DNA of 64,000 nt from an uncultured Planctomycetia bacterium (GCA_964650515.1 CAZYUB010000006.1:13858-77857), one strand, 5' to 3'. Positions 46,630-62,305 are shown, counted from the stretch's first letter. The notes: generated by a model not told the origin, from the letters alone. Made by a program: numbers and translations.

Positions 46630-48001
46630 TATTGTAGCTTTCCTTCAAAACTTCGTGGTAGTAGAGCCAATCGTCGCTTACCTTCTTCATCGCGCTGTAG
46701 AGGTTCCTGTAATCGTCGTAGATATCGCATTCGAACTCGATATTACGCCTTCCGCTCAGGAAGTGCGCGAAGAGCTTGTAGTTCATCTCCTTGCGCAGGA
46801 AGTTCTTCTTCTTCAGCGCATAGAAGAGGGAGCCGCTGCCTTCGAAGCAGTTCATTATCCTTACCCATTCGCAGGCGATGAATATGCAGTTCTTATAGCT
46901 GCCGAAGAGGTCGACCGTGTCGCAGTCGATGAAGACGCATGATTCGAGCTTGCTCGACGGTTTTATCTTCTTGCTCCTGACGAAATAGTTGCCGTTCTCG
47001 TCCGGCTTGGATATCTGCGCGGTCAATTTGCGCAGCAGCTCGAGGTAGGTCATTATGTTCGAAGCCCAGTCGATCCAGTAGCCCTTGGCGATGGCGCCGC
47101 CGACGCTGATCTCGTATTGCTGGAGGCATTCCCTCATCGCGAGCTGTATCTTCGACAGTGCCTTCTTCTCGAGGACGAGCGACTCGCAGATGAGCTTGTT
47201 GAAGCTCCATTCGGTCGCGTTCAGGTGTGAGATGAAGTCCTTGTTCTTCTCCTTGGAGCAGAAGAGGTCGACAGCGCTCTGCATCTTATCCAGGTTCTCT
47301 TTTGTCGTGAAGAGCTGGAACGTATTCGCGAGCGTCATGCCTTTTGAATACTTCGGTATCAGTTTTTCATCGAAGGTCTTCTCGTAAAACGACGATATGC
47401 GGTTATCCGCGTCTATCTTCGCCGTGCCGAGGCTTCCAAGGGCCCTATTCACCTGTATCGGGGTCAGCAGCATGGAAGCGGAGTGTGAGTTGAGCGATTT
47501 CAGCAGTCCGTTTATGTCCACATCGGCATAATCGAAGCACTGGTCGATCGGAAGTATGATGACCGTATTTTTCAAGAGGGGGATGCTCTTCGCGATGCAC
47601 GGGAGAAGCATGTCCGGCGCGCGGCCCTCGGGGAACCTTATGCTCGCCTTTGAAGGCGTGCCGAACTCGTAGGAGAGGGGGAATATCCTCGTGGCGAGGC
47701 CGGCGTCGTGGATATATATTATGGTGTCGAAGGAATCGAGCTTCTTTTTGGAAAGAAGCTTCTTTATGCGCTCGTGTGTCTTCAGGTAGCCGGTAAGGTT
47801 GCCGCGGGTCTGGCCCATCTCGGCCATCCCGACAAGCTCGACGTCTATAGTCTTATTATAACGCTCCCTGAGCTTCTTCTTGAAGAGCTGCTTGAGGTCG
47901 AGCGAGAATTCAAGCTTATCGTAAGAGTTCAGGACGAGCAGGACCCTGTCCGCGACCTCATTTTTTACGCTTAAGTTCTCCAACGGAGCCGTTTTAGCCA
48001 T
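46622..48001 (-). CDS. Sugar-1-phosphate nucleotidyltransferase-like protein (459 aa). Convergent with the giant gene, overlapping it by 8 bp.
   Basis: HDAGLATRIFPLS…KASIRFPEG…MLLPCI resembles the GxGTRxxPxT nucleotidyltransferase signature. Lys-rich, with somewhat lower GC than the neighbours. Confidence 0.5.
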   Translation of the reverse strand: MAKTAPLENLSVKNEVADRVLLVLNSYDKLEFSLDLKQLFKKKLRERYNKTIDVELVGMAEMGQTRGNLTGYLKTHERIKKLLSKKKLDSFDTIIYIHDAGLATRIFPLSYEFGTPSKASIRFPEGRAPDMLLPCIAKSIPLLKNTVIILPIDQCFDYADVDINGLLKSLNSHSASMLLTPIQVNRALGSLGTAKIDADNRISSFYEKTFDEKLIPKYSKGMTLANTFQLFTTKENLDKMQSAVDLFCSKEKNKDFISHLNATEWSFNKLICESLVLEKKALSKIQLAMRECLQQYEISVGGAIAKGYWIDWASNIMTYLELLRKLTAQISKPDENGNYFVRSKKIKPSSKLESCVFIDCDTVDLFGSYKNCIFIACEWVRIMNCFEGSGSLFYALKKKNFLRKEMNYKLFAHFLSGRRNIEFECDIYDDYRNLYSAMKKVSDDWLYYHEVLKESYNTR

Positions 48002-48107: not shown

Positions 48108-48638
48108 TTGCCGGAAGCGGTCCAACGCATAAATTGGGTTGATGTCTTAACCGTAATCCTTTTGTTAAGAACATGTTATATCGGCGCTAAGACGGGCCTG
48201 TCTGAAGAGGTATTCAGGATAATCGGAGTTGTCTTCGCCCTGTATATTTCGATGAGTTTTTACTCTCCGCTCGGTAGCAGGATAAACTCGGGTTTCTCGC
48301 TGCCCCAGGAACTTGTCGACGGGGTTTCTTTTTTAATTCTAATTTTACTGTGTATGTTAAGTCTTAAGTTAGTCGCCCTCGGCGTGACTAAAGTCGTCAA
48401 GCTCGCGTTTGCCGACAAGATAAACCAGTGGGGCGGTTTCATATCGGGATTGCTGAGGGGCGCTATTCTCCTCAGTATGCTCTTTACGCTGTTCGGGATA
48501 TTGCAGGTGGATTACCTCGTTAAGTCGGTCGAAGAACGTTCCCTGACCGGCCCGTATATAAGCAGGATCGCGCCGTACGCATACCATGTCGTCGCAAGGA
48601 ACTCCCCCGAAGCTATAAAAATAGAAGAACAAAAATAA
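48108..48638 (+). CDS. cvpA: Colicin V production protein CvpA family membrane protein.
   Basis: INWVDVLTVILLL… is CvpA-like with 4 TM segments. An RBS AGGAGA at 48096-101 suggests a TTG start at 48108. The track ORF begins at GTG 48072. Confidence 0.7.
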   Translation: MPEAVQRINWVDVLTVILLLRTCYIGAKTGLSEEVFRIIGVVFALYISMSFYSPLGSRINSGFSLPQELVDGVSFLILILLCMLSLKLVALGVTKVVKLAFADKINQWGGFISGLLRGAILLSMLFTLFGILQVDYLVKSVEERSLTGPYISRIAPYAYHVVARNSPEAIKIEEQK

Positions 48639-48650
48639 CAGGAGGATGAA

Positions 48651-49610
48651 TTGAAATTATCGAAGATCTATGATCTCGTGGTAAGGGAAGGTATTGCCGC
48701 CGATCCGCGCGGAAAAGACGCGGTCGCGAAGGTCCTCTCGAAAGCCAGGAAAGATTACGAGGCGCTGAAAGAGAAGGATAAGCAGTATTTCGACAAGGAG
48801 AGGCTGCAGAACCCTTACGCGGACACGAGGATACTGTACGGCAGCGGTTCGACGGAGGTCAAGCGGATAATCGTCGGCGTCGATATGGAAGTGGGCGAGG
48901 TCGTGCTGGCCGACAGGCTCAGGCAGAAAGGCATGAAGATAGACCTCGTGCTGGCGCACCACCCGGAAGGCCGCGCTTGGGCGAATTTCTATGAGGTCAT
49001 GAATATGCAGCCGGACATATGGGCGAAGTTCGGCGTGCCTATAAATGTCGCGGAAGGGATAATGAAGGACAGGGTAAAGGAGGTCGAGCGCAGGGTCATG
49101 CCGGCCAACCATACCCGCACGGTCGATGCCGCGAGGTTGCTCGACATCCCGATGATGTGCGCGCACACCGTTGCGGACAACCATGTCGTCTCGTATCTGC
49201 AGAAGCTTATGGACTCGAAGGCCCCGGATACGGTCGCCGAGGTCATAGACATACTTAAGGATATACCCGAATACCAGCAGGCTATGAAGGTCAATGCCGG
49301 GCCGCGCGTGTTCTTCGGGGATCCGAAAAATAGCGCGGGCAAGGTCTTTGTCGACATGACCGGCGGGACAGAAGGCCCGACGAACATGTTCGAGAAACTC
49401 GAAAACGCCGGGGTCGGGACGATCGTCGCGATGCACCTCGGTGAGGACCACCTGAAGAACGCGCAGAAGGGCCACCTGAACGTGGTCATCGCGGGGCACA
49501 TATCGAGCGACAACCTCGGCCTGAACCTGCTTTTCGACAAGCTCGCGAAAGAGGAGAAGCTTGAGTTCATCGGCTGTTCGGGTTTCGAAAGGGTAAGCCG
49601 CGGCAAATAA
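48651..49610 (+). CDS. Nif3-like (DUF34/GTP cyclohydrolase 1 type 2 homolog) dinuclear-metal protein.
   Basis: …EVKRIIVGVDMEVGEVVLADRLRQKGMKIDLVLAHHPEG… and a C-terminal VVIAGHISSD match Nif3 metal-site motifs. Confidence 0.6.
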   Translation: MKLSKIYDLVVREGIAADPRGKDAVAKVLSKARKDYEALKEKDKQYFDKERLQNPYADTRILYGSGSTEVKRIIVGVDMEVGEVVLADRLRQKGMKIDLVLAHHPEGRAWANFYEVMNMQPDIWAKFGVPINVAEGIMKDRVKEVERRVMPANHTRTVDAARLLDIPMMCAHTVADNHVVSYLQKLMDSKAPDTVAEVIDILKDIPEYQQAMKVNAGPRVFFGDPKNSAGKVFVDMTGGTEGPTNMFEKLENAGVGTIVAMHLGEDHLKNAQKGHLNVVIAGHISSDNLGLNLLFDKLAKEEKLEFIGCSGFERVSRGK

Positions 49611-51382
49611 TGGCGTTTTCGGAACAGGTACTAGAAGAGATACAGAGCAAGTCCGATATCGTCGAGATCATCGGAAGCTACATACCGCTCAGGCGCGCCG
49701 GAAGGAATTATAAGGCGAACTGCCCGTTCCACAAGGAAAAGACCCCGTCGTTCATGATAAGCCCCGCGAAACAGATCTTCCATTGTTTCGGGTGCGGCGC
49801 CGGGGGCAACGTCTTCGGGTTCGTGATGAAGATGGAGAACATCGACTTCCCGGAGGCGGTAAGGACCCTGGCGGAAAAAGCCGGGGTGAAGCTTCCGAGC
49901 TTCACGCGCAGCCAGTTCGAGACGAGCAGTTACGCGGTTCAGATATACAAGACGAACGAGATGGCCGCGGCATATTACCGTTCGATGTTGTTGAACACGG
50001 ATGCCGGGAAACGCGCCGCGGCGTACCTGAAAAGCCGCGGCATAAGCGAAGAGGCCGCGCAGAAGGCGAGCCTCGGGTTCGCGCCGGACGAATGGAGCGG
50101 GCTCATAAACTACGCGAAGGGCAAGGGCGTAGACATTGCGGTGCTCGAGCGTTCGGGCCTCGTCGTCCCGAAGGAGGGAGGCGGGCACTACGACAGGTTC
50201 AGGAACAAGATAATCTTCCCGATATTTGACATAAAGGACAGGGTAGTCGCTTTCGGCGCAAGGGTGCTGGACAACTCGGTCCCGAAATACATAAATTCCC
50301 CCGAGACGGAGGTCTATATAAAGAGCAGGCACCTCTACGGCCTTAACTTCTCGGTCAAGGAGGTAAAGGAGAAGGACCTCTGCGTGATAGTGGAGGGCTA
50401 TCTCGATTTCCTCGTGCCCTACGATATGGGCGCCGGGAATATCGCGGCTTCCCTCGGGACGAGCCTCACGGACTCGCAGGCGAGGCTTATCAAAAGATAT
50501 ACGAAGAACGTGGTAATGCTCTATGACGGGGATTCGGCGGGCGAAGCGGCGTCCCTGCGCGGGCTTGATGTTTTCCTTGAGGAGAACGTCAACGTGAAGG
50601 TCGCGGTCCTGCCGAAGGGCTTGGACCCGGATTCTTTCATAAGGAGCAAGGGGCTTAAGGCGTTCGAAGAGCTCATATCGTCGGCTTCGGACCTGTTCGA
50701 TTATAAGCTCGGGATATTGTCGTCGAGATACGACAGCCGCATATCATCGGGCAAGGCGAAGATATGCTCCGAGATGCTGCCGACGATAGCGAAGGTCTCC
50801 GACGCGGTCTTGAAGTTCGAGTTCATCAGGCGGTTGTCGGAGAAGCTCCAGATACGGGAGGAGGCGCTCCTTTCGGAGATCAAGAAGGTCAAGCCCCAGG
50901 GCCGCGGATACGAACTCCCGGAGGAGTTCGCCTCGGAGGGCAGGCCGCAGGCCGCGATGGCCGAGAAGATAATAGTCGGGCTAATGCTCGAGGACCCGGA
51001 CGTCATAGCCGAGGTAAAGGGGAAGCTGAAACCCTCGGACTTCGAGGACGGGCCGGCCAGGAAGGTCGTAGAGGAGATATTCGCGAATTACGGCGACGGG
51101 AAGTCGTTCAACCCTTCCCGGCTCATAAACAAATTGTCGGACCCGGAACTTACAAGGCTCATTGCGGAGTCGACGAGCCTTATCGAGGATATAAAGGACA
51201 AGCAGAAGAACCTCGAGGACTGCATCAGGTGGATGGCGGCCAAGCACGCGAAAGCGAGGCTCGCGGAATTGCAGAACCTCATTAAGGCGGCCCAGGTAAT
51301 GGGCGACGAAGGCAAGGTGAACCAGCTCGTCGCCGAATACAGCGGCCTGATAAAATACCAGAAAGAATTTGCCAGGAGATGA
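49610..51382 (+). CDS. dnaG: DNA primase.
   Basis: Zinc finger [11 protein letters not shown]…CFGCG, TOPRIM EGYLD, and DGD. Confidence 0.9.
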
Positions 51383-52974
51383 CCGCAGTGAAGAAGACCG
51401 ACATAAGGAAAAGGATAAAGGGCCTTGAGAAGCTCATTGCCCTCGGCAAGGAGAAGGGCCACCTCACTTTCGAAGAGGTGAACAACCTGCTGCCCGAGGA
51501 AGTGACTTCTTCCGAGGATATCGACGAGATATTCGCGGTCCTCGACAAGGAGAAGATCGAGATAATCGACTCCGAAGAGGAGAAGGAACTCAAGGAAGAG
51601 GCGATGGAGGAGGAGAAGGAAGAGCACCATAAGCACGAGGCAGAGGCAGAGGAGCTCCCCCGCATGGCCGTGATGGAAGACCCTGTTCGTATGTACCTTA
51701 AGCAGATGGGGCAGATCTCGCTCTTGACGCGCGAGCAGGAGCTCGAGCTCGCGAAAAAGATAAAAGAGGCGGAGTTCAGGTTCCGCGAAGCGGTCTTCGA
51801 GTGCAAGTTCTGCAGGAGGGAGATCCTCCAGCTAGTAAACGATATCCTCGCGAGGCAGGTCAACATAGACGAGGTCGTAGACATAGACCCGACCGAGAAG
51901 ATAGAAAAGGTCGTGAAGAAGATGCAGCGCCTGACCAAGAGGCTGCGCGGCGCAAAGAAGACGACGAACCTCGTGCCGCTGCTGATGGAATTCAGGTTCT
52001 CGACTTCCGTTGTCGAAGACCTTTCGAACATGATGAAATACCTCGTCGCCGACATCGAGAAGATAGACAGGGACGTCGTCAGGTTAAGGGGCAGGGCGCC
52101 GAGGGGCCACATCTCCGGGATCAAGGAGAGGAAGCGCAAGATACTCCGCGATTTCGGCGAACCGCTGCTGAAGATAAAGGACAGGTTAGCTTACGTAAGG
52201 CGCCGCGAAAGGCAGTTCGAGAGCGCGCAGAAGAAACTCGTCGAGGCGAACCTAAGGCTTGTCGTATCGATCGCGAAGAAATACACGAACAGGGGCCTCT
52301 CGTTCCTCGACCTCATCCAGGAAGGCAATATCGGCCTGATGCGCGCGGTCGACAAGTTCGAATACGAGCGCGGATATAAATTTTCGACATACGCGACCTG
52401 GTGGATAAGGCAGGCGATAACCCGCGCCATTGCGGACCAGGCGCGCACTATCAGGATCCCGGTCCACATGACCGAGACGATAAACAAGCTCATACGCGTA
52501 TCGCGCAACCTCGTGCAGGAGACAGGCCGCGAACCGCTGCCCGAGGAGATCGCGCACGAGATGAGGATGGCGACCGAGAAGGTGCGCGGTATCCTTAAGA
52601 TAGCGCAGGAACCTATATCCCTGCAGACGCCGGTCGGCGACGAGGGAGATACGCATTTCGGCGATTTCATCGAAGACAAACGCGCTGTATCGCCGGCGAA
52701 CGCGACCGCATATTCGATGCTCAAGGAACAGCTCGAGGACGTACTGACCACGCTGACCGAAAGGGAGAAGAAGGTGTTGAAGCTGCGTTTCGGCATCGGC
52801 GACGGCTGCCCGAGGACGCTCGAAGAGGTCGGTTCGATATTCAATGTCACGAGGGAGAGGGTAAGGCAGATAGAAGCTAAGGCCCTGCGCAAGCTGCGCC
52901 ATCCGATACGCTCGAAGAAGCTCAAGACCTTCCTCGAGATGGGATTGGGCCTGGGAGAGGAGAGCGGGACTTAA
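51379..52974 (+). CDS. rpoD: RNA polymerase sigma factor RpoD (sigma70).
   Basis: Region 1.1, the acidic insert, the region 2 motif [10 protein letters not shown], and a region 4 HTH. Confidence 0.9.
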
Positions 52975-52983
52975 GGAGGATTC

Positions 52984-53913
52984 GTGAGATCGCTTGAATA
53001 CGCAGCGGTTCTGATTGCTGTCGCTTTCGCATATATATTATTCAATTTCGGGATCCGCGCCAACAAGTATAAAAAGGCCGGGTCCCGAAATCTTTTTATG
53101 GGTACGCTTTTCGTTGCGCTTGGCCTGTTGTCCTGCGGGACTGCGTCCGGAGCGGCGCAACCGGCTCAGGCCGTTCGGTCGGAGAAAGAGGCGCAGAGGC
53201 CGTTAAAGGAGCTTTTTGCTACGGAGCAATGGAAGCAATTCGGGGATTTTTGGAAAAAACTGGATGCCCTGGAGCCGAAACGCGGCAAGTATGAGGAGTC
53301 CATATCCGCTGAGCAGCAAAAGTCCCTGAGAGCGGAGATGGAGGAAAGGATAACGGGCCTCAGCGGACTGGACGGAAAGCTTATATCTGCCGGACAGATC
53401 GACCTTCTGAGGCGCATCTGCAGCGAGAGGATAGATATCTATTCGTTTGATATGACGATGTTGTCCCGCATGATGCCGCCGCCTTCCGTCGGCATTAATA
53501 AGATGCTGCTTGTCGATATCGAATCCAGGATAGACAAGCTTTCGGAGCTGAAGAAGAAAGGTAAGGTCAGCGAGGCCGAGTTCGGGGAGGCGCTGTCGAA
53601 CATACAGCAGGATATCGAAGCGGTCTGCGCGATAAGCATAATCAGGTCGAAGTACGGGCCCAGCTATCGCCTAAGAAAGCCGGTCGCTTTCTCCGGGGAC
53701 GCCGGCAAAATGACGGACGAAGCCGTTGAAGCTTTTGAGAAGGATTATGCCGATTCCGAAGCTAAGCGTAAGCAGCAGGAAGAGACGGCGGACCAGCGCG
53801 CGCACTATGAAAGGCTGGCCGTTCAGTACCGCGAGACGAAGAACGCGATCGAGCAATTGAGGTCTGATAGATCCCGCCTATACGGGATGATCTCCGATCT
53901 GGAGAATGACTAA
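52984..53913 (+). CDS. Hypothetical lipoprotein. An internal start at 53098 gives MGTLFVALGLLSCG, a classic lipobox.
   Basis: ORF 52984..53913. Lipobox LLSC. The rest is low-complexity and coiled-coil. Confidence 0.5.
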   Translation: MRSLEYAAVLIAVAFAYILFNFGIRANKYKKAGSRNLFMGTLFVALGLLSCGTASGAAQPAQAVRSEKEAQRPLKELFATEQWKQFGDFWKKLDALEPKRGKYEESISAEQQKSLRAEMEERITGLSGLDGKLISAGQIDLLRRICSERIDIYSFDMTMLSRMMPPPSVGINKMLLVDIESRIDKLSELKKKGKVSEAEFGEALSNIQQDIEAVCAISIIRSKYGPSYRLRKPVAFSGDAGKMTDEAVEAFEKDYADSEAKRKQQEETADQRAHYERLAVQYRETKNAIEQLRSDRSRLYGMISDLEND

Positions 53914-54838
53914 ACCCTTCTTCATATACGAAATAACCCCGCGTTGCAACCGCGACTGCGTATACTGTTATAATGTCTGGAAGGAATCCCCTGATTATCC
54001 GACGAATGAGCTCTCCGTTCCGCAGATCAAGGCGCTATTCGACAAGGTCCTGTCAGATGTCAGGCCGTCCGGAGTCACCTTGACCGGCGGTGAACCCTTG
54101 TTACACGAAGGCATCTTCGAGGTCGCATCGTACCTTGATTCAAAGGGGGTCCGGCTCGGTATCGCGACGAATGGCTCACTGCTTGATGATGCGGCGGTCC
54201 GTTCGCTCATCGGCCGCGGCGTAAAATATTTCGAGGTCTCCCTGCCGCGCGCGGATGAGCCGGGCGCAAGGAAAGCCGTACTTTCGGTCAAGAAGCATAA
54301 AGCCGTGCTTAACGTTTCAGTCGTCGTGACCGGGCAGAACAAAACCGAGATAGCGGATATAATAGATCTCGCGTTCGCCTTTTCGGCGGACTCCGTCTCG
54401 CTTAACAGGTTCGTGCCGGGCGGCCGCGGATTGTCGAACATCCCCGCATGTATGATAAGCGACAAGGAACTCGCCGGGGTATTATACGTGGCGGACAAGA
54501 AGGCCGGCGAGCTGGGCCTTCAGGTGAACGTCACTGTCCCCGTGGAGGATTGCCTGATAAACCACGGTGATTACAGGCACCTGAACTTCGGGACCTGCAC
54601 GTGCGGTGAATGGAAATGGGTCATCGATCCTTCCGGCAATCTCAGGACATGTGAACAGAACCCTGAAATATTGGGAAATCTATTTGAGAAAAGGTTCCGG
54701 GAGCTTGCGGCATCGGGGAAAGTGTCCGCGTTCCGGGACAGGGGACTGAACCGCGGATGCGATGATTGTGCAAGAAGAGATGAATGCGGCGGCGGATGCA
54801 GGATCCTGCACGCGCGCGAAAAGGTCATGAAGATATGA
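53906..54838 (+). CDS. Radical SAM enzyme with a C-terminal SPASM/twitch Cys cluster.
   Basis: The radical SAM CxxxCxxC motif (CNRDCVYC) near the N-terminus. C-terminal CTCGEW…C…GCDDCARRDECGGGC. Confidence 0.75.
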   Translation: MTKPFFIYEITPRCNRDCVYCYNVWKESPDYPTNELSVPQIKALFDKVLSDVRPSGVTLTGGEPLLHEGIFEVASYLDSKGVRLGIATNGSLLDDAAVRSLIGRGVKYFEVSLPRADEPGARKAVLSVKKHKAVLNVSVVVTGQNKTEIADIIDLAFAFSADSVSLNRFVPGGRGLSNIPACMISDKELAGVLYVADKKAGELGLQVNVTVPVEDCLINHGDYRHLNFGTCTCGEWKWVIDPSGNLRTCEQNPEILGNLFEKRFRELAASGKVSAFRDRGLNRGCDDCARRDECGGGCRILHAREKVMKI

Positions 54839-56139
54839 CGGTAAAGAAGTGGGTCGTAGCGAGGAGGATCGTCCAGGGCTGCTTCTTTGCCCTGTTCATA
54901 CTGCTTTTACTGCCCGTAGGGATCGACCCGCTGGTAACAGTATTCGTATCAATCAGCGAGAGGGTCTTGCTGCCTGGCCTATTATTGGCGGCGGCCATGC
55001 TTTTTCTGTCAACGGTCTTCGGCAGGTTCTTCTGCGGTTGGATCTGCCCGCTCGGTACGCTGCTAGATGTTTCCGGGACGTTTGCCCGTAAAGAGAGGGA
55101 ATCAGGCGAGAAGTTCAATGCCGCCGCGAGGAAAGGGAAGTTCGTTCTGCTTGCCGTTGTCGCCGCGGCGTCCGTTGCGGGGGTACAGATCGCATGGGTG
55201 CTCGATCCGCTCGGTATAGTCTCGCGCCTGGTCGGCACGTTCCCCGGTTCGCCGGCCATGCTCGCCGTACTGCTTGCCGTCTGTTCGACCGTATTCATAA
55301 GGAAGCGTTTCTGGTGCCGCGGCATCTGTCCGCTCGGGGCGCTCTACGCCATCACAGCAAAGATATCGCCTTTTGTGCGCAGGGTAAGGGATTGCGGCGA
55401 CTGCAAGGCCTGCGTTCCGCGCTGTAGGATGGGCGCTATACGCGATGACCTCAGTTATGCCAAGAGCGAATGTATCCTCTGCATGGACTGCATTTACGAC
55501 TGCCTGACGTCCGGGACAGATTTCGGGTTCGGCGACGGGAACAGCGAAGCGGTGGATCCGTCAAGAAGGGGCCTGCTGCTGCTGATATCTTCATCAGTAC
55601 TATTATCGGGTTTCGGCAGGTTCAGGTTTCCCGCGCGCGAGCGTGCGGTCATAAGGCCTCCGGCCGCCCTGCCGGAGGACGAGTTCGTCGACCGCTGTAT
55701 CAGGTGCGGAAACTGCATGAGGGTATGCATTACGAACGGCCTGCAGCCCGCGATTGGAGAATGCGGCGTTGCGGGTATATGGACACCGAAACTTGTTCCC
55801 GAGATAGGGTATTGCGAGTATAATTGTACGTTGTGCGGCAACACGTGCCCGACCGGCGCGATACGAAGGGTATCGCTCACGCAGAAGCATGATACGAAGC
55901 TCGGGCTCGCGGTGGTAGACCGCGTAAGGTGCATATCGTGGGCCGACGGGAAACAGTGCATGGTATGCGAGGAACACTGTCCCGTCCCGCGGAAAGCGAT
56001 CAAGGCGGCCGAGGAGACGGTCAACGGCAAGGTAATACGCAAACCGGTCGTCGACGGCAACCTCTGCGTCGGCTGCGGCATCTGCCAGAACAAATGCCCG
56101 GTGGGCCCGGTAAGGGCCATTAGGGTCAAGCCATTCTGA
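54835..56139 (+). CDS. Polytopic membrane protein with multiple 4Fe-4S ferredoxin motifs (NapH/MauN-like polyferredoxin).
   Basis: Several TM helices, a CGWICPLG motif, and at least four CxxCxxCxxxCP clusters. The ATG at 54835 overlaps the rSAM stop. Confidence 0.65.
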   Translation: MTVKKWVVARRIVQGCFFALFILLLLPVGIDPLVTVFVSISERVLLPGLLLAAAMLFLSTVFGRFFCGWICPLGTLLDVSGTFARKERESGEKFNAAARKGKFVLLAVVAAASVAGVQIAWVLDPLGIVSRLVGTFPGSPAMLAVLLAVCSTVFIRKRFWCRGICPLGALYAITAKISPFVRRVRDCGDCKACVPRCRMGAIRDDLSYAKSECILCMDCIYDCLTSGTDFGFGDGNSEAVDPSRRGLLLLISSSVLLSGFGRFRFPARERAVIRPPAALPEDEFVDRCIRCGNCMRVCITNGLQPAIGECGVAGIWTPKLVPEIGYCEYNCTLCGNTCPTGAIRRVSLTQKHDTKLGLAVVDRVRCISWADGKQCMVCEEHCPVPRKAIKAAEETVNGKVIRKPVVDGNLCVGCGICQNKCPVGPVRAIRVKPF

Positions 56140-56153
56140 AAGGAGAGCGACAA

Positions 56154-57275
56154 ATGTTCGGAAGGAGAGCGGCGCCGAGGGTCAAGTCATCCGATACGAT
56201 CTACGCTTACCTTAAGCGCGGGATAAGGGAAGGCGCTTCCGATATCCATTGGGAGCCGTACAGCGACGGCAGCAGGGAGAGCATAGTAATACGTTTCAGG
56301 GTAGACGGGATCCTGAAGGACGCGGGCAAACTCTCCAGCGAGGCGTTCTCGAGCACAGTCATAAACGCGATCAAGATAATGTCCGCAATGGACCCGACGA
56401 AGAAGCGCACCAACCAGGACGGGCGCTTCAATTTCACGCAGGACGGCACCGGATACGACGTCAGGGTCGCGATAATGCCGACGATATCCGGCGAGAAGGT
56501 CGTCATGAGGATAACGAACAGGGGCACATACTGCAAGAATATCTCCGAGCTCGGCATGGGCGGCGAAGCCCTGAAAAATTTCGAACAGATGATACACAGG
56601 CCGGAAGGTTTCGTGCTTATAACAGGCCCGTCCGGCGCCGGAAAGACGACGACGCTCTATTCGATACTGCAGAACGTCTACAGGCGCGAGATAAACATCT
56701 GCACTATCGAGGACCCGGTCGAGCTGCAGTTCGGCGGGATAAACCAGATACAGGTCAACTACGAGTACGGCATGACGTTCGTAACGGGTTTGCGCGCGAT
56801 AATGAGGCAGGACCCAAATATAGTCGCGGTGGGCGAGATAAGGGACCTCGAGACCGTCCGGATAGCGTTCCAGGCGTCGCTCGCGGGCTCCATGGTATTC
56901 TCGACCCTGCACGCGAGGGACGCGGTCAATACGGTAACGCGGCTAATGGACATGGGAGTCGAGCCGTTCTTCATAGCGACCGCGCTGACCGGCATAGTGT
57001 CGCAGCGGCTCATCCGCCTTACGTGCCGCGACTGCGCGGGCCAGGGCTGCAAACAATGCAACTTTACCGGGTTCAGGAAAAGGATAGGCGTCTTCGAAGT
57101 GCTCCGCATGAACGATCCCCTGAGGCAGTTGATATTGAAACGGCCGAATTTCGAGGAGCTGAAGGCCGCGGCGATAGGCCAGGGGATGGTGCCGTTCGCG
57201 TCGCTTATTGAGCCGATGATAAAGCAGGGCCTGACCACCTCAGAAGAGGTCAACAGGGTCCTCGCGCTGGAATAG
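56154..57275 (+). CDS. Type II/IV secretion-system ATPase (GspE/PilB family), short form lacking the N-terminal domains.
   Basis: Walker A GPSGAGKTTT, Asp box, His box, and the tetracysteine CRDC…CKQC. Confidence 0.75.
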   Translation: MFGRRAAPRVKSSDTIYAYLKRGIREGASDIHWEPYSDGSRESIVIRFRVDGILKDAGKLSSEAFSSTVINAIKIMSAMDPTKKRTNQDGRFNFTQDGTGYDVRVAIMPTISGEKVVMRITNRGTYCKNISELGMGGEALKNFEQMIHRPEGFVLITGPSGAGKTTTLYSILQNVYRREINICTIEDPVELQFGGINQIQVNYEYGMTFVTGLRAIMRQDPNIVAVGEIRDLETVRIAFQASLAGSMVFSTLHARDAVNTVTRLMDMGVEPFFIATALTGIVSQRLIRLTCRDCAGQGCKQCNFTGFRKRIGVFEVLRMNDPLRQLILKRPNFEELKAAAIGQGMVPFASLIEPMIKQGLTTSEEVNRVLALE

Positions 57276-57276
57276 G

Positions 57277-57305
57277 CCGCCCCGGAGCGGCGCGCGGCTT
57301 ATTTT
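57277..57305 (+). terminator. Possible intrinsic terminator (GC hairpin followed by TTATTTTA).
   Basis: GCCGC…GCGGC stem followed by a T-rich run immediately after the GspE-like stop. Confidence 0.3.
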
Positions 57306-57309
57306 AGGC

Positions 57310-57338
57310 TTGCTAAATCCGTCTTAAAATAGTATCAT
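57310..57338 (+). promoter_or_regulatory. Candidate promoter for the tRNA pair (TTGCTA-17-TATCAT).
   Basis: Correct spacing, ~12 bp upstream of the tRNA 5' end. Confidence 0.35.
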
Positions 57339-57350
57339 ATCTATCACTTT

Positions 57351-57427
57351 GGGCCCATAGCTCAGTTGGTTAGAGCAGCTGACTCATAATCAGCGGGTCA
57401 TAGGTTCAAGTCCTATTGGGCCCACCA
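57351..57427 (+). tRNA. tRNA with a CAT anticodon (elongator Met, or Ile2/lysidine type), with encoded CCA.
   Basis: Cloverleaf GGGCCCA/TGGGCCC acceptor stem, anticodon loop CTCATAA, TTCAAGT T-loop. G1:C72 excludes initiator tRNA. Confidence 0.8.
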
Positions 57428-57434
57428 AATTTCC

Positions 57435-57511
57435 GGGCGATTGGCTCAGTTGGTTAGAGCGCCACATTCACATTGTGGAGGTCAAAGGTTCGAATCCTTT
57501 ATCGCCCACCA
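57435..57511 (+). tRNA. tRNA-Val (anticodon CAC), with encoded CCA.
   Basis: GGGCGAT/ATCGCCC acceptor stem, anticodon loop TTCACAT, T-loop TTCGAAT. Confidence 0.8.
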
Positions 57512-57533
57512 TCTCACACCCCGGGAGCGCCAT

Positions 57534-58268
57534 ATGCAAAAGATAAATGTTGAAGAACAGATAGGCCACCTGAAAAAACTCCAGGCCGTCGACGGCGATA
57601 TCTTCCGGCTGCGCAGGGAAAGGGCGTCGAAACCCAAGCTTATCGAGGACCTTGAAGCGCGCCGCAACGACGAACAGGCCGCGGTCAGGGGCATTGAGGA
57701 GAAGATAAAGGCGAACCAGGTAAAGCGCAAACAGCGCGAACTCGACCTGCAGGCGAAAGAGGACGGGGTAAAGAAACTCCAGGTCCAGCTCTACCAGCTG
57801 AAGACGAACAAAGAATACCAGGCGATGCAGCAGGAGATAGAGGGGCATAAGGCGGACAAGTCCCGCGTCGAGGATGACATACTTGTGCTCATGGAAGAGG
57901 CGGATGCGCTGAATAAGGACCTCGCGAAGGAGAAGGCGCTTTTCGCCGACGCGGAGAAGCACCTGAACGAGGACAAGAGGGTGATTGAGGGCGAGATCGC
58001 CGCGCTCGACAAGCGGATAACGGAGCTCGAGGCGGAACGCTCCGCCGCCGCCGCGCAGGTCGATAAGAAGGTCCTCGCGCATTACGAGAAGGTATTGTCG
58101 GGAAGGGACGGCGTCGCGATCGTGGCGGTGAAGGACAACGCGTGCCAGGGGTGCTTCATGAACCTGCCGCCGCAGATGATAAACGAGATAAAAATGAACG
58201 ATAAGGTCATCACCTGCGAGAGCTGCGCGCGCATATTGTACATTGAGAAAGAAGCCGATGCGCCATAA
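57534..58268 (+). CDS. Zn-ribbon coiled-coil protein (DUF164/COG1579 family).
   Basis: Long coiled coil, then CQGC…CESC at the C-terminus. The track ORF start (57441) overlaps tRNA-Val, so I trimmed it to the ATG at 57534. Confidence 0.7.
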   Translation: MQKINVEEQIGHLKKLQAVDGDIFRLRRERASKPKLIEDLEARRNDEQAAVRGIEEKIKANQVKRKQRELDLQAKEDGVKKLQVQLYQLKTNKEYQAMQQEIEGHKADKSRVEDDILVLMEEADALNKDLAKEKALFADAEKHLNEDKRVIEGEIAALDKRITELEAERSAAAAQVDKKVLAHYEKVLSGRDGVAIVAVKDNACQGCFMNLPPQMINEIKMNDKVITCESCARILYIEKEADAP

Positions 58269-58674
58269 ACGCCTCGTCATATATACGGACGGCGGTTCCC
58301 GCGGGAATCCCGGGCCGTCGGGCATAGGCGTCATCGTATGCGGCGAAGGCGGAGAGGCCGTAAAGAACGTATCGAAGTATATCGGCGAGACGACGAACAA
58401 CGTCGCGGAATATATGGCGCTGATATACGGCCTGCAGGAGGCCTTGATTTTAAGGGCCGATGAGGTTATAATCAACTCGGATTCGGAACTGCTTGTAAAG
58501 CAGCTGAAAAAGGAGTATAAGGTCAAGGATAAGGACCTGAAGGTGCTGAACGGCCAGGTCGAGCACCTGTTGTCGGGCTTCAGGAAATACGAGATAAACC
58601 ATATCGACCGTTCCCTTAACAAGGGAGCGGACAGGCTGGCCGATAAGGCGGTAGGCCAGGAGTCGCTCTTTTAG
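58243..58674 (+). CDS. rnhA: Ribonuclease HI.
   Basis: VIYTDGGSRGNPGPSGIGV, plus the DEDD catalytic residues. Confidence 0.85.
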   Translation: MRKKPMRHKRLVIYTDGGSRGNPGPSGIGVIVCGEGGEAVKNVSKYIGETTNNVAEYMALIYGLQEALILRADEVIINSDSELLVKQLKKEYKVKDKDLKVLNGQVEHLLSGFRKYEINHIDRSLNKGADRLADKAVGQESLF

Positions 58675-58684
58675 ATCACAGGAT

Positions 58685-59117
58685 TTGGGCAGGCCGGATG
58701 GTCGGTCCTGGCTGATTTGCTTCGGCTTCTTGCCAGAAGCAAATCAATACGCCTGGACAGGAAAGTCCGAGCTCCAAAGGACAGCGTAGCGGGTAACGCC
58801 CGTCCGTCGTAAGGCGAGGATAATCCCAAGGCTAGTGATAGCCGCAGGATCCCGATGCCGGACTTCTCCGAAGTCCTGGCTCGGGAGAGCCACAGTGACG
58901 AACAATCCCATGCGGGAGGCCTGACGGCCTTAACGCCGGGACGAAGTGAAACGCGGCAATCTCTACGCGGTGCAAGGCCAAATAGGCGCATCTCTTGGGG
59001 CTGTCCGTCCCAAGCCCGCAAGGGCGGATGCGCGGGTTGGCTGCTTGACCCCGGCGGTAACGCCGGGGCTAGATGGATGATCATCGAACACGAAACTCGG
59101 CTTATAGGCCTGCCCAA
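58685..59117 (+). ncRNA. rnpB: RNase P RNA (bacterial type A).
   Basis: P4 strands: GGAAAGTCCGAGCTCC (5') and ACGAAACTCGGCTTATAGG (3'). A P1 pairing GGGCAGGCC…GGCCTGCCC. About 430 nt. Confidence 0.7.
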
Positions 59118-59138
59118 AATAATTTTCAGGAGAAGGAA

Positions 59139-59510
59139 TTGGCTATAGAAAGCCGCGCCGGCATAAGGGTAAAGATAGACGCGACCATAATGGTCGAGAT
59201 CGATACGGGCATGAAGGACAAGGTCCGCATAATCCGCGAACCCCAGAAGGCCGTCGTCGTCGACATAAGCATCATCGGCCTCGGCGTGATATCGCCGATA
59301 TTCCTTCCGAAAGGCGCCATCCTCGTCATACAGCTTGATACTACGATCTTCGATACAGACAAACCCGCGAGGGTAATAGGCGAGGTCAGGTACTGCAGGC
59401 CTTCGAAGAACAAGGATTACAGGACCGGCGTGAAGTTCCTCGATATAGACAAGACCCTGCTCGCGAAGATAAAAGAGTATGTCGAGCAGCATAAGCACAA
59501 CGCGGTATGA
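59139..59510 (+). CDS. PilZ-domain c-di-GMP-binding protein.
   Basis: RxxxR-like start and DISIIGLGV (DxSxxG). RBS AGGAGAAGGA, then a TTG at 59139. The track ORF start at 59073 would lie inside rnpB. Confidence 0.6.
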   Translation: MAIESRAGIRVKIDATIMVEIDTGMKDKVRIIREPQKAVVVDISIIGLGVISPIFLPKGAILVIQLDTTIFDTDKPARVIGEVRYCRPSKNKDYRTGVKFLDIDKTLLAKIKEYVEQHKHNAV

Positions 59511-59535
59511 ACCTACGGGAGACGCGGCGCGGCAT

Positions 59536-60636
59536 ATGGACATAAAAGCGATATTCAAGTCGATGGTAGATACCGGGGCTTCCGACATCTTCTTCAAGGT
59601 GGGAAGCCCCGTTAATTTTCGGGTGGACGGGATGCTGGCTCCGCAGGGTTCCGAAGCCCTTACCGAAAAAGACGTCTCGAAGATGATCGACGAGGTCTTG
59701 TCCGCGGACCAGAAGAAAGCCTTTGAAAGGGACCGCGAGATAGATTTCGGCGTTAACTTCGAGGGGCTCGGGAGGTTCCGCGGCAGCATATTCCACCAGA
59801 ACGGATTGCCCGGCGCCGTCTTCAGGTTCATCAAGGGCAAGATAGAGGCGTTCGACCCGCTGAACCTGCCGTCGAAGGTGCTCAGCAAACTCGCGCTCGA
59901 GAAGAGGGGCCTCATACTAATTACGGGCGCGACCGGAAGCGGCAAGTCCACGACTATCGCGAGCATAATAGAATACATCAACCAGAACCTTCCGTCCCAT
60001 ATAGTCACTATCGAGGACCCGATAGAGTTCGTCTTCGAGGATAAGAAATCGCTCGTCGAACAGCGCGAACTCGGCCTCGATACGCCGTCTTACCTCGATG
60101 CGCTGAAACATGTCATGTACCAGAGCCCGGACGTTATATTCATCGGCAACATACGCGACATGGAGACGATGGCGGCCGCCATGACAGCCGCCGAAACGGG
60201 CCAGCTCGTCGTAAGCACGATACATTCCGTGAACGCTATACAGACCGTAGAGAGGATAGTGAATTTCTACCCGCCCCACCAGCATGAGGAGATACGCATG
60301 CAGCTCTCGCTGCTGCTGAAGGGCGTCATCTCGCAGAGGCTGATCCCCGTAAAGGAAGGCAAAGGCAGGATGCCCGCCTGCGAGGTCATGCTCAATACCC
60401 CCACGATCTCCGCCCTGATAAGGGAAGGCAAGACGAACGAGCTCCTGCAGTATATAGAGGAAGGCGGAATATTCGGCATGCAGACGTTCGACCAGTGCCT
60501 CGCCAAGCTTTGCCTCGACGGCCGCATATCAGTCGAAGAGGCTAAGCGATTCTGCGATTCCGTCGCGATACTCGACCTCGCCCTTAAGGGCATCAAACGC
60601 ACCGAACGCGGCACTCCATTCACCCCCAACCGCTAA
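59536..60636 (+). CDS. pilT: Twitching-motility ATPase PilT.
   Basis: MDIKAIFKSMVDTGASDIFFKVGSP… is PilT-like. Walker A GATGSGKST. An alternative upstream start is at 59479. Confidence 0.85.
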   Translation: MDIKAIFKSMVDTGASDIFFKVGSPVNFRVDGMLAPQGSEALTEKDVSKMIDEVLSADQKKAFERDREIDFGVNFEGLGRFRGSIFHQNGLPGAVFRFIKGKIEAFDPLNLPSKVLSKLALEKRGLILITGATGSGKSTTIASIIEYINQNLPSHIVTIEDPIEFVFEDKKSLVEQRELGLDTPSYLDALKHVMYQSPDVIFIGNIRDMETMAAAMTAAETGQLVVSTIHSVNAIQTVERIVNFYPPHQHEEIRMQLSLLLKGVISQRLIPVKEGKGRMPACEVMLNTPTISALIREGKTNELLQYIEEGGIFGMQTFDQCLAKLCLDGRISVEEAKRFCDSVAILDLALKGIKRTERGTPFTPNR

Positions 60637-60648
60637 TCTAGTAATCTA

Positions 60649-60737
60649 GGAGCCATCCTCCAGGGGGACACCCTCAGATATAATGAAGGACGGAGTCTGT
60701 CCAGTGTGTCCCCTCGGAGGATGGCTCCCTTTTTTTG
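60649..60737 (+). terminator. Large intrinsic terminator: a ~23-bp bulged stem with a structured loop, followed by TTTTTTT.
   Basis: GGAGCCATCCTCC…GGAGGATGGCTCC is a perfect 13-bp inverted repeat. The inner AGGGGGACAC/GTGTGTCCCCT arm extends the stem. A T7 run at 60730-36. Confidence 0.6.
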
Positions 60738-60763
60738 GCTCCCTTTTTTCCCTATTATTTCCC

Positions 60764-60792
60764 TTGACACAAGTGGAGGTGGGGTGTATACT
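60764..60792 (+). promoter_or_regulatory. Sigma70-like promoter TTGACA-17-TATACT for the mraZ (dcw) cluster.
   Basis: TTGACA at 60764-69 and TATACT at 60787-92. Confidence 0.5.
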
Positions 60793-60802
60793 TTGTAGCG
60801 TC

Positions 60803-60830
60803 AGGTGGAGTAAAGTGGTTTAAAGTGGAG
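60803..60830 (+). promoter_or_regulatory. Putative MraZ operator: three direct repeats (c)AGGTGGAG / AAAGTGGTT / AAAGTGGAG at exact 10-bp phasing.
   Basis: GTGG cores at 60805, 60815 and 60825. Additional GTGG(A/G) copies at 60773, 60779 and 60840. Confidence 0.45.
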
Positions 60831-60836
60831 AATATG

Positions 60837-60947
60837 GTTGTGGGTCCAAATTAGCCTTTGTCGGGGAGCCCTCGCAAGAGGGAAAGGCAAAGCAAAAAGG
60901 GTCCAGCCGGTCCTTATAAATTTTGGGCCCACAACCTTTTTGTTCTT
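60837..60947 (+). promoter_or_regulatory. Structured mraZ 5' leader: a long-range stem (GTTGTGGGTCCAAA … TTTTGGGCCCACAAC) followed by CTTTTTGTTCTT, a candidate attenuator or terminator.
   Basis: The inverted repeat encloses ~70 nt, which contains a CCCTC-GCAA-GAGGG GNRA hairpin. A T-rich tract lies 25 nt upstream of the mraZ RBS. Confidence 0.4.
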
Positions 60948-60972
60948 ATCTTCGCTATTGGGGGGATGATAG

Positions 60973-61419
60973 ATGTTTTACGGGGAATACGAACATACTA
61001 TCGACAGGAAGGGCAGGATCATCATACCCTCCAAGTTCCGCGAGGTCTTCAAGGAAAATTTCGTCGAAAAATTCTACGTGACGCGCGGCCTCGACAAGTG
61101 CCTCTTCGTTTTTACCGAGGAAGAATGGAAGCTCGCCGAACAGAAATTCAAAGGCATGTCTTTTACCAAGGCCGACTCGAGGAAGTTCAACCGCCTGTTC
61201 TTCTCGGGCGCCGTAGATGTCACATGCGACAAGCAGGGAAGGGTCCTGTTGCCGCAGTACCTGAAGGATTACGCCGGGATAAAACGTGACGTAATGATAG
61301 TCGGCGTCTCGAACAGGATGGAGATCTGGTCGAAGGAGGAGTGGAACAGGTACTACGATAACGCGGCGCCTTCGTTCGAGAAGACCGCGGAGAACCTATT
61401 GGAACTTGACAACACATAA
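60973..61419 (+). CDS. mraZ: Transcriptional regulator MraZ.
   Basis: MFYGEYEHTIDRKGRIIIPSKFRE… is MraZ, with duplicated DxxxR domains. Confidence 0.9.
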   Translation: MFYGEYEHTIDRKGRIIIPSKFREVFKENFVEKFYVTRGLDKCLFVFTEEEWKLAEQKFKGMSFTKADSRKFNRLFFSGAVDVTCDKQGRVLLPQYLKDYAGIKRDVMIVGVSNRMEIWSKEEWNRYYDNAAPSFEKTAENLLELDNT

Positions 61420-62305
61420 GCCCGTTCTTTTAAAAGAGGTTCTTGAGGCGCTTGAGCCTGCGCCGGGGAAGACGATAGTCGACTGCACGGTCGGCCTCGG
61501 TGGCCATGCCGAGGCGATACTAGCGGCGATATCACCCGGAGGGCGGCTGGTCGGAATCGACAGGGATGCTCAGGCGCTTGAGATAGCGAAGGAAAGATTA
61601 GGGAGGCCCGGGGAGAGGGTGGACCTGATCAAGGGAAGGTTTGACGAGCTCGACGCGATCTTTGAGAGGGCCGGGATAAAAGGGGCCGACGGTTTCCTGT
61701 TCGACCTCGGCGTATCCTCGATGCAGTTCGACGAGGCGGGCCGCGGGTTCAGTTTCCGCGCCGACGCGCCGCTCGATATGCGCATGGATACCGAGGCGGT
61801 AAAAGACGCCGCGGAGCTCATCAATACAACGAGCGAAGCGGAGCTCGACCGCATACTCGAGGAGTACGGCGAGGAGAGGTTCCACCGCAGGATCGCTTCG
61901 GCGATCGTAGAGGAGAGGAAGAAGGCCCGGATAGAGACGACCGGAAGGCTTGTCGATATAATCGTGCACGCGATGCCTTATAAGATGAGGCACGGCAGGG
62001 TGCACGCGGCGACAAGGAGCTTCCAGGCGTTCAGGATAGCGGTCAACGACGAGCTGGGCTCGCTCGACAGGGCGCTTGACCAGGCGATCGGGCTGCTGAA
62101 CACGGCGGGTGTCATATGCGTTATATCATACCACTCGCTGGAAGACAGGATAGTGAAGAACAAGTTCAGGGAAGCCAAGGCCCGGAAGATATTGGAATTG
62201 AAGAGCAAGAAGCCGGTGACGCCGACCGAGCAGGAGATCGGTGGTAATCCGCGGGCGCGCAGCGCGAAAATGCGCGCGGCTAAGGCGGCGCGAAGCGACG
62301 CCTAG
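61406..62305 (+). CDS. rsmH: 16S rRNA m4C1402 methyltransferase RsmH.
   Basis: HKPVLLKEVLEAL…DCTVGLGGH is RsmH. TTG start overlapping the mraZ 3' end. Confidence 0.9.
   Translation: MTTHKPVLLKEVLEALEPAPGKTIVDCTVGLGGHAEAILAAISPGGRLVGIDRDAQALEIAKERLGRPGERVDLIKGRFDELDAIFERAGIKGADGFLFDLGVSSMQFDEAGRGFSFRADAPLDMRMDTEAVKDAAELINTTSEAELDRILEEYGEERFHRRIASAIVEERKKARIETTGRLVDIIVHAMPYKMRHGRVHAATRSFQAFRIAVNDELGSLDRALDQAIGLLNTAGVICVISYHSLEDRIVKNKFREAKARKILELKSKKPVTPTEQEIGGNPRARSAKMRAAKAARSDA

Follow-up and report, generated by a model that had tools for sequence, protein, structure and literature searches.

We examined a 64,000-nucleotide stretch of DNA from an uncultured Planctomycetia bacterium (GCA_964650515.1 CAZYUB010000006.1:13858-77857), hereafter the window, in which a radical S-adenosylmethionine (SAM) enzyme with a SPASM domain (R) is encoded directly behind a helical protein of unnamed family (X) and ahead of a polyferredoxin (F) and a short secretion-type ATPase. 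The X-R pair is best read as a radical SAM/SPASM maturase together with its cognate, protein-sized exported substrate; no library family, solved structure or paper that we found covers X or the pair, and our literature search returned no description of either. Gene neighbourhoods and motif conservation suggest, at about even odds (roughly 0.5), that R modifies X in the cytoplasm at or near R162-M163 and that X is exported afterwards. A preliminary description of this locus had seen no obvious substrate gene and no obvious role for X. The first was interpretation rather than observation, and comparison among genomes overturns both: X is the one strictly conserved partner of R and its likely substrate.

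A two-gene cassette of X and R

The R alignment was scanned against one genome per species, which yielded 80 loci, and X was located by BLAST and with an X profile. In 58 of the 80 loci X immediately precedes R on the same strand, separated from it by -7 to +52 nt, and in another three it lies no more than 1.3 kb upstream, with an AAA ATPase gene lying between the two in L009; among the remaining R loci, three have no upstream sequence. On the first three distant contigs, from Ratteibacteria, Patescibacteria and Omnitrophota, R is preceded by an overlapping gene for a protein of approximately 325 aa that has no Pfam match and is 31-35% identical to X. The pair is present in at least 15 bacterial phyla, and the taxa include Omnitrophota, Ratteibacteria, several classes of Patescibacteria, Elusimicrobia, Acidobacteriota, Bacteroidales, Desulfuromonadales, Spirochaetes, Fermentibacteria/Aegiribacteria, Planctomycetota and Victivallales. 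Clustering of all neighbouring open reading frames (ORFs) in the 80 loci returned no third conserved gene family beside X-R, and no protease or exporter gene that accompanies the pair. As judged from these neighbourhoods, the conserved unit is a two-gene cassette consisting of X and R. The trio of lipoprotein, radical SAM enzyme and polyferredoxin for which the preliminary description had proposed a co-occurrence check thus reduces to a duo, which F joins in one Omnitrophota sublineage only.

All four ORFs of the locus were confirmed on the plus strand (Table 1). X starts with GTG, 5 nt downstream of AAGGAGG, the X and R genes overlap by 8 nt, and the ATG of F overlaps the stop codon of R as ATGA, as had been reported. 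The intergenic gaps along the locus are, in order, 9, -8, -4 and 14 nt, so that no additional small precursor ORF could fit between the genes. In pairs of precursor and maturase the precursor gene typically comes first, its stop codon overlapping the start of the maturase gene.

Table 1. Features of the X-R locus and its surroundings (positions in the window)
Feature	Coordinates	Strand	Description
X	52984-53913	+	309 aa; exported or membrane-anchored all-helical protein, unnamed family; candidate substrate of R
X N-terminal targeting region	52999-53136	+	transmembrane helix TM1 (residues 6-24), basic loop, second hydrophobic segment ending in lipobox-like LLSC (37-51)
W83-x6-W90 (EWxxFKxFWKKLD)	53230-53253	+	two most invariant X residues, in a confident AlphaFold2 helix
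Loop motif S161-R-M-M-P-P-P167	53464-53484	+	consensus [TS]-[RH]-M-[MIAV]-P-P-[PW]; candidate modification site
SHOCT-like amphipathic helix hairpin (I179-E180-x-R-I-D-x-L...G-x-V-S-x-x-E)	53518-53595	+	always after the loop
R	53906-54838	+	310 aa; radical SAM/SPASM enzyme, unnamed family, without N-terminal RRE domain
Radical SAM [4Fe-4S] motif C14-x3-C18-x2-C21 (CNRDCVYC, residues 14-21)	53945-53968	+	invariant in R alignment
SPASM region	54551-54799	+	Cys 216, 231, 233, 249, 285, 288, 294, 298
F	54835-56139	+	434 aa; membrane polyferredoxin, NapH-like N-terminal half and NapG-like C-terminal half
Short GspE/PilB-core ATPase	56154-57275	+	373 aa; starts 14 nt after F
Segment unalignable with near-identical Omnitrophota relatives	52965-55297	+	blastn breakpoints; X, R and first ~154 codons of F

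R, a radical SAM/SPASM enzyme outside the named families

The description of R as a radical SAM enzyme with a C-terminal SPASM domain was borne out by its matches to Pfam Radical_SAM (PF04055; 65.2 bits against a cutoff of 29.5) and Pfam SPASM (PF13186; 25.4 bits against 21.5), by the CNRDCVYC motif, and by eight C-terminal cysteines that are invariant across 24 homologues. The spacing of these cysteines (C233-x10-G244-x4-C249 and C285-x2-C288-x5-C294-x3-C298, plus C216 and C231) indicates a full SPASM domain, with enough ligands for two auxiliary clusters. Homologues of R number 974 at E<=1e-10, are about 315 aa long and come from many uncultivated lineages. The AlphaFold2 (AF2) model of R has a predicted local distance difference test score (pLDDT) of 85, and its nearest solved folds are SkfB (8.8e-15), PqqE and peptide-bound SuiB, with DesII, TigE, BlsE and anaerobic sulfatase-maturing enzyme (anSME) structures among the lower matches. 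A PqqD-like RRE is absent, the radical SAM motif beginning at residue 14, and in alignments with PDB homologues residue ~7 of R falls opposite a residue at or beyond ~100 in SkfB and SuiB.

No named NCBIfam family was reached by R, and every equivalog fell far below its cutoff. The best matches were AhbD (TIGR04545, 86.8 bits) and NirJ2 (TIGR04055, 86.4 bits), both with cutoffs of 500, and lower scores were obtained for NirJ (67 bits, cutoff 515), MftC (TIGR03962; 58.5, cutoff 265), PqqE (TIGR02109; 54.8, cutoff 381) and MoaA (TIGR02666; 50.2, cutoff 284). It is therefore highly improbable that R is a known housekeeping enzyme such as AhbD, MoaA or PqqE, acting on a distal substrate and lying beside X by chance: the automatic name "AdoMet-dependent heme synthase" that some members carry at the Joint Genome Institute (JGI) would agree with such a role, but an X-R adjacency that extends over at least 15 phyla cannot be incidental. 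The comparison corrects that automatic annotation, and the family check suggested in the preliminary description gave no housekeeping assignment.

Nearly every homologue has approximately 12 residues that R is missing after its residue ~118 (window 54260-54270). The two closest relatives, P0002 and P0003, are missing them as well, and P0004 is not; the deletion is therefore considered a lineage trait, and decay of R was rejected on the same grounds.

X, an exported helical protein with a conserved flexible loop

X matches no Pfam or NCBIfam family even at E<=1, a weak SHOCT-like similarity being all that was detected, and weak Pfam SHOCT matches were obtained for 5 of 28 family members. Its AF2 model matches no solved structure, and the X profile matches no PDB sequence. 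A word-indexed homologue search returned four matches with the single sequence and 29 with a profile; family size was taken instead from an exhaustive search of 1.84 billion proteins, which gave 230 representatives at 50% identity.

The first transmembrane (TM) helix and the basic loop behind it are kept across phyla, and the full arrangement of TM helix, basic loop and second hydrophobic segment is found in about half of the family; in Fermentibacteria a plain signal peptide takes the place of the TM1 arrangement. An N-terminus of either type, TM helix or signal peptide, implies that the body of X is extracytoplasmic. X had been called a lipoprotein, and a lipobox-like LLSC is indeed present at residues 48-51, but by hydropathy it stands behind an extra upstream TM helix, and a lipobox-like cysteine occurs in only 52 of 186 family members. 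The NCBI gene call of X (P0121, 271 aa) begins at Met39 and skips the conserved TM1 and basic loop (window 52984-53098); it is probably too short.

The AF2 model of X has a mean pLDDT of 67 and an all-helical body. Conservation was counted over 195 distinct family members (194 at some positions), and the least variable residues were W83 (193/194), W90 (193/195), R149 (190/194), E180 (187/195) and L189 (182/194); in the SHOCT-like hairpin I183 is kept in 167 sequences and E199 in 158. Within the loop motif, position 162 is Arg in 169 and His in 23 of the 195 sequences, M163 is kept in 166, P165 in 159 and P166 in 147. Residues 159-169 have a pLDDT below 50 and lie between helices, and the loop is the sole strongly conserved element of X that AF2 leaves disordered. 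X has no conserved cysteine, and many homologues are without any cysteine at all. In three Bacteroidales loci (L015 873-2465, L021 4421-6001 and L064 77-1552) X is a tandem duplication, approximately 530 aa long, of the whole mature domain, in which the first half carries an S-H-F-x-P-P loop, the second a T-R-M loop, and each half its own helix.

Two kinds of chemistry were rejected as candidates: cysteine-based modification (sactionine, thioether or formylglycine), given the many cysteine-free homologues of X, and three-residue cyclophane formation at W83 or W90, where the +2 positions are unconserved.

A loop motif that changes with the enzyme clade

A sister clade of R, 31-37% identical to it, is encoded directly downstream of exported proteins that carry [T/V/M]-C-Y in place of [TS]-R-M. 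These CY-type modules were missed by a hidden Markov model (HMM) of the core module (loop plus helix) and came to light on inspection of the upstream ORFs and their alignment with hmmalign, in which SRMMPPP (window) stands opposite TCYIAYP (L052), with the helix E-x-R-I-x-x-L...G-x-I-[ST] following in both. The motif is also multiplied. In a Planctomycetota metagenome-assembled genome (L065) there are four T-C-Y copies, two of them in an X-like protein and one in each of two tandem predicted lipoproteins of ~80 aa (5478-5717 and 5723-5956) that directly precede a radical SAM/SPASM gene at about 5995; each of these small proteins has a SHOCT-like tail in addition to its lipobox and T-C-Y motif. 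L077 has two loop-plus-helix copies in one protein. The background frequency of TCY is 3.9e-5 per residue in six-frame translation. CY-type loci group together when the enzymes are placed in a neighbour-joining tree, although the motif labels of that tree were set by a crude regular expression and carry some noise. X is thus encoded beside the enzyme, and its short motif differs between enzyme clades and is present more than once in some proteins, a behaviour that resembles that of radical SAM maturase substrates.

Among more distant loci, Gly/Ser/Tyr/Trp-rich proteins (for example with SPWSSP-type repeats) with a SHOCT-like tail are encoded upstream of related radical SAM genes in L069 (1712-2368), L072 (5194-5943) and L081 (2861-3640), and two radical SAM/SPASM genes stand in tandem in L069, L070, L075 and L079.

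Modification before export, and a cofactor alternative

The comparisons show the pairing of the two genes, the make-up of the motif, its covariation with the enzyme clade, and that F and the ATPase are independent of the pair; from them we infer that X is the substrate, which site is modified and that export comes after modification. X-R would be a self-contained two-gene maturation cassette in which cytoplasmic R, with one SAM cluster and two auxiliary clusters, abstracts a hydrogen atom from X. The modification of X would take place in the cytoplasm, before the protein folds, and export would follow. The target would be the flexible loop [TS]-[RH]-M-x-P-P (S161-P167), and the SHOCT-like helix that follows it, possibly a recognition element, would serve for docking.

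Several observations weigh against modification of X by R. All of the support for it is genomic association, and a close R in one Bacteroidales genome (L017) has no adjacent X, with cmk upstream instead. The motif labels of the enzyme tree are somewhat noisy, as noted above. R has no RRE domain, and as a radical SAM substrate X would be large. W83, W90, R149 and E180 lie in confident helices, and most invariant residues placed in this way suit a folded functional protein rather than a peptide core. Finally, the residues that alternate at the loop, His/Met and Cys/Tyr, are among the classic ligands of metals and haem; the loop may therefore serve in binding rather than as a modification site.

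These last points bear on an explanation in which X is a partner and not a substrate: R would produce or tailor a cofactor or other small molecule (such as a tetrapyrrole, the product of its distant relatives AhbD and NirJ), and exported X would bind or use the product through a pocket formed by W83, W90, R149 and E180 together with the loop. We consider this rather unlikely. The best NCBIfam similarities of R, to AhbD and NirJ2, and its automatic JGI name point towards it, but the AhbD and NirJ scores lie far under the cutoff of 500 and only slightly above those of peptide maturases (52-67 bits), and the nearest solved folds are peptide maturases, though no AhbD or NirJ structure was among the comparisons. 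Invariant residues in folded helices and the presence of Met, His, Cys and Tyr at the loop, all typical metal or haem ligands, would fit a binding protein; a cytoplasmic product would nevertheless have to reach exported X, and there is no conserved nearby transporter or biosynthetic gene to bring it there. The pair is moreover retained in Patescibacteria, with their minimal biosynthesis, and the multiplied motif modules and ~80-aa lipoproteins of the sister clade look substrate-like. The preliminary description had left R as a maturase for a protein or a cofactor; the protein remains the best reading, and the cofactor is ranked lower.

Radical SAM/SPASM enzymes are a main source of new post-translational chemistry, and almost all of those characterised have short peptides as substrates. 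If R does modify X, the pair would constitute a widespread cassette, found in at least 15 phyla and also in the genome-reduced Patescibacteria, with a full-size exported envelope protein as presumed substrate and a short, mappable motif. The sister clade with its different motif provides a built-in comparison, and a defined X-R pair makes the chemistry directly testable.

A role of the locus as an anti-phage defence system was rejected, as none of the four proteins has a PADLOC match beyond generic similarity of the radical SAM core to pVip and of the P-loop region.

Comparison with known systems

The radical SAM/SPASM enzyme QhpD crosslinks periplasmic QhpC, the gamma subunit of quinohaemoprotein amine dehydrogenase, in the cytoplasm before export, and does so as Cys thioethers. 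The proposed action of R on an exported protein before its export resembles this case, whereas X has no conserved cysteine and no sequence relation to QhpC. Resemblance to the anSME enzymes AtsB and ChuR lies in an RRE-less cytoplasmic radical SAM/SPASM enzyme and a short Pro-containing motif in a full-size protein, modified before Sec export. In contrast to anSME systems, the locus has no sulfatase and no C/S-x-P-x-R motif, the candidate site in X is without conserved Cys or Ser, and anSME families are outside the best HMM matches of R. TIGR04133 (rSAM_w_lipo) is likewise a SPASM enzyme paired with a lipoprotein of unassigned role, its partner being a lipoprotein family; R scores 58.5 bits against its cutoff of 425 and no NCBIfam lipoprotein family matches X at E<=1, so these are different families.

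The maturases of peptides that are made on ribosomes and modified after translation (RiPPs), namely SkfB, PqqE, SuiB/StrB and TigE, are closest to R in fold and sequence profile, and they share with it an upstream precursor gene and a motif that varies with the enzyme clade. They differ in that R lacks the RRE or leader-binding domain, X is a folded exported protein of ~300 aa, and no protease or exporter gene is present. MNIO enzymes modify precursors with lipoprotein signals in the cytoplasm, including proteins larger than 30 kDa (PMC13056109), and no radical SAM system is mentioned in that paper. The DAG-RiPPs and bufferins described there have in common with X a precursor with an export or lipoprotein signal that is modified in the cytoplasm and then delivered to the envelope, but there a non-haem iron MNIO modifies Cys motifs, whereas R is a radical SAM/SPASM enzyme and the X motif is free of cysteine. 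No MNIO (DUF692) gene was found at the X-R locus, which sets it apart from the DAG-RiPP systems. Were the proposed order of events correct, the logic of modifying a signal-peptide-bearing precursor before its export would extend from MNIO to radical SAM enzymes.

The polyferredoxin and a cassette swap on a conserved backbone

F has four N-terminal hydrophobic segments, two FCGWICP-type motifs and an internal SRRGLLLL that resembles a twin-arginine translocation (Tat) signal. Its four canonical CxxCxxCxxxC motifs (residues 187, 213, 288 and 411) and two variant ones agree with the earlier count of at least four ferredoxin clusters in a multi-TM protein. Matches were obtained to Pfam Fer4_5 and several Fer4 families, and to NapH/MauN (TIGR02163; 93 bits, cutoff 213) in the N-terminal half and NapG/MauM (TIGR00397; 86 bits, cutoff 178.9) in the C-terminal half. 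Although each half of F thus resembles one of these proteins, F is a single fused polypeptide below both cutoffs, and no nap or mau context was found around it.

A metagenome scan with F identified at least 577 relatives, from which 80 loci (L086-L165) were kept. X or R was found within 5 kb of F in none of these 80 independent loci, and a DUF362 protein with a Tat signal was found near F in 53 of them, mostly directly upstream. The pairing conserved for F, as its homologues and their neighbours indicate, is DUF362-polyferredoxin and not radical SAM-polyferredoxin, and the analysis establishes the former as a real conserved association. F adjoins X-R in one Omnitrophota sublineage only, consisting of the window, L006, L170 and L173; L006 is the only one of the 80 R loci in which it does so, and F is missing beside X-R in more than 50 loci of other phyla as well as in Omnitrophota L004 and L014. 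In L006 the order cvpA-NIF3-dnaG-rpoD-X-R-F is kept with an R-F gap of 28 nt, and TolC, HlyD and MFS genes follow instead of the ATPase.

Near-identical Omnitrophota relatives of the window (L166-L169) have the gene order cvpA-NIF3-dnaG-rpoD-DUF362-F-ATPase-CT398-RNaseH-PilZ-PilT-mraZ, and their flanking proteins are 93-99% identical to those of the window. Amino acid identity between this type and the window is 95% for dnaG, 99.4% for rpoD, 95% for the ATPase, 97.5% for PilT and 69% for F. By blastn, window 48382-52964 aligns with L166 1-4582 at 92.9% nucleotide identity and window 55298-62000 with L166 6136-12870 at 89.7%, while the intervening segment of the window cannot be aligned with L166 4583-6135: where the window has X, R and ~154 codons from the start of F, the relatives have DUF362 and the first ~186 codons of F. 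The 3′ two-thirds of F lie inside the conserved flank. DUF362 of these relatives has no counterpart in the window, and because it occupies the X-R position, X-R is a swapped cassette. The closest X-R relatives, L170 and L173, have rpoD fragments 100% identical to that of the window, with identities of 55-56% for X, 73-76% for R and 65-68% for F, and L173 (X-R type) shares JGI sample 3300010429 with L167 (DUF362 type). By these alignments the locus is a hypervariable slot in an otherwise conserved backbone, filled by alternative cassettes that have diverged deeply, and F is a resident gene outside the core cassette.

The ATGA overlap between R and F had been taken as a sign of membrane redox partnership. 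In L166 (4621-6986, DUF362 plus F) the stop codon of DUF362 overlaps the start of F in the same way, so that the coupling is inherited from F, predates X-R and gives no sign of an R-F partnership. It nonetheless deserves consideration that within this sublineage F could act as a membrane redox partner, either feeding electrons to or draining them from the clusters of R or wired to mature periplasmic X in place of DUF362. A SPASM enzyme must be able to pass on electrons when it oxidises its substrate, F directly follows R in all four X-R loci of the sublineage, and X-R sits in the exact slot of DUF362, the usual exported partner of F, which makes functional substitution conceivable. Given that F is a resident gene, that its independent loci are free of X and R, and that X-R does without F elsewhere, we regard such a trio as unlikely. 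A more far-reaching proposal, which we consider quite improbable, is that R carries out a radical modification of a kind not described before at an adjacent-residue dyad (Arg/His-Met, or Cys-Tyr in the sister clade) of a folded exported protein of ~30 kDa, giving a protein-derived crosslink or redox-active group; in the Omnitrophota sublineage mature X would then replace DUF362 as the periplasmic partner of F, and the swap would amount to an exchange of extracytoplasmic redox modules.

The short secretion ATPase

The ATPase gives a full-length match to Pfam T2SSE (E 7.5e-102), with a Walker A sequence GPSGAGKT at 158 and a tetracysteine C291-x2-C294-x4-C299-x2-C302. It scores below the cutoffs of both GspE (TIGR02533; 402.8 bits against 630) and PilB (TIGR02538; 376.4 against 675.7), covering positions 113-387 of 486 in the GspE model and beginning at position 187 of the PilB model. 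Alignment to GspE from model position 113 onwards indicates that the N-terminal domain is absent, in keeping with the earlier view of a core domain with a zinc tetracysteine and no N-terminal domains. The protein clusters, at 90% identity or more, with 373-aa proteins from Candidatus Omnitrophota, which identifies the organism of the window as a member of that lineage. Its gene always lies between F and a CT398-like gene, whether X-R or DUF362 is upstream. In all other phyla surveyed it was never found next to X-R. Involvement of the ATPase was rejected on this absence outside the lineage and on its unchanged position when DUF362 replaces X-R, and the preliminary description was right to see no role for it in the unit.

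A PilZ-PilT pair lies 2 kb downstream of the ATPase in L166-L169, and in the window the PilT gene alone was confirmed (59479-60636); no pilin, platform or secretin genes were seen in the 64-kb window. Genes for tRNA-Met and tRNA-Val come after the ATPase.

Other features of the window

Upstream of the locus, the plus strand encodes a 1271-aa protein with a TolC-like OEP domain (33593-37408), which precedes a 3074-aa ORF (37405-46629) with a 1,3-beta-glucan synthase domain of eukaryotic type (PF02364, E 1.3e-23) and a GT2 region. The only sizeable minus-strand gene of the region (46622-48001) encodes a 459-aa protein that has no Pfam match and shows weak similarity to GlgC-like nucleotidyltransferases (E 8e-4).

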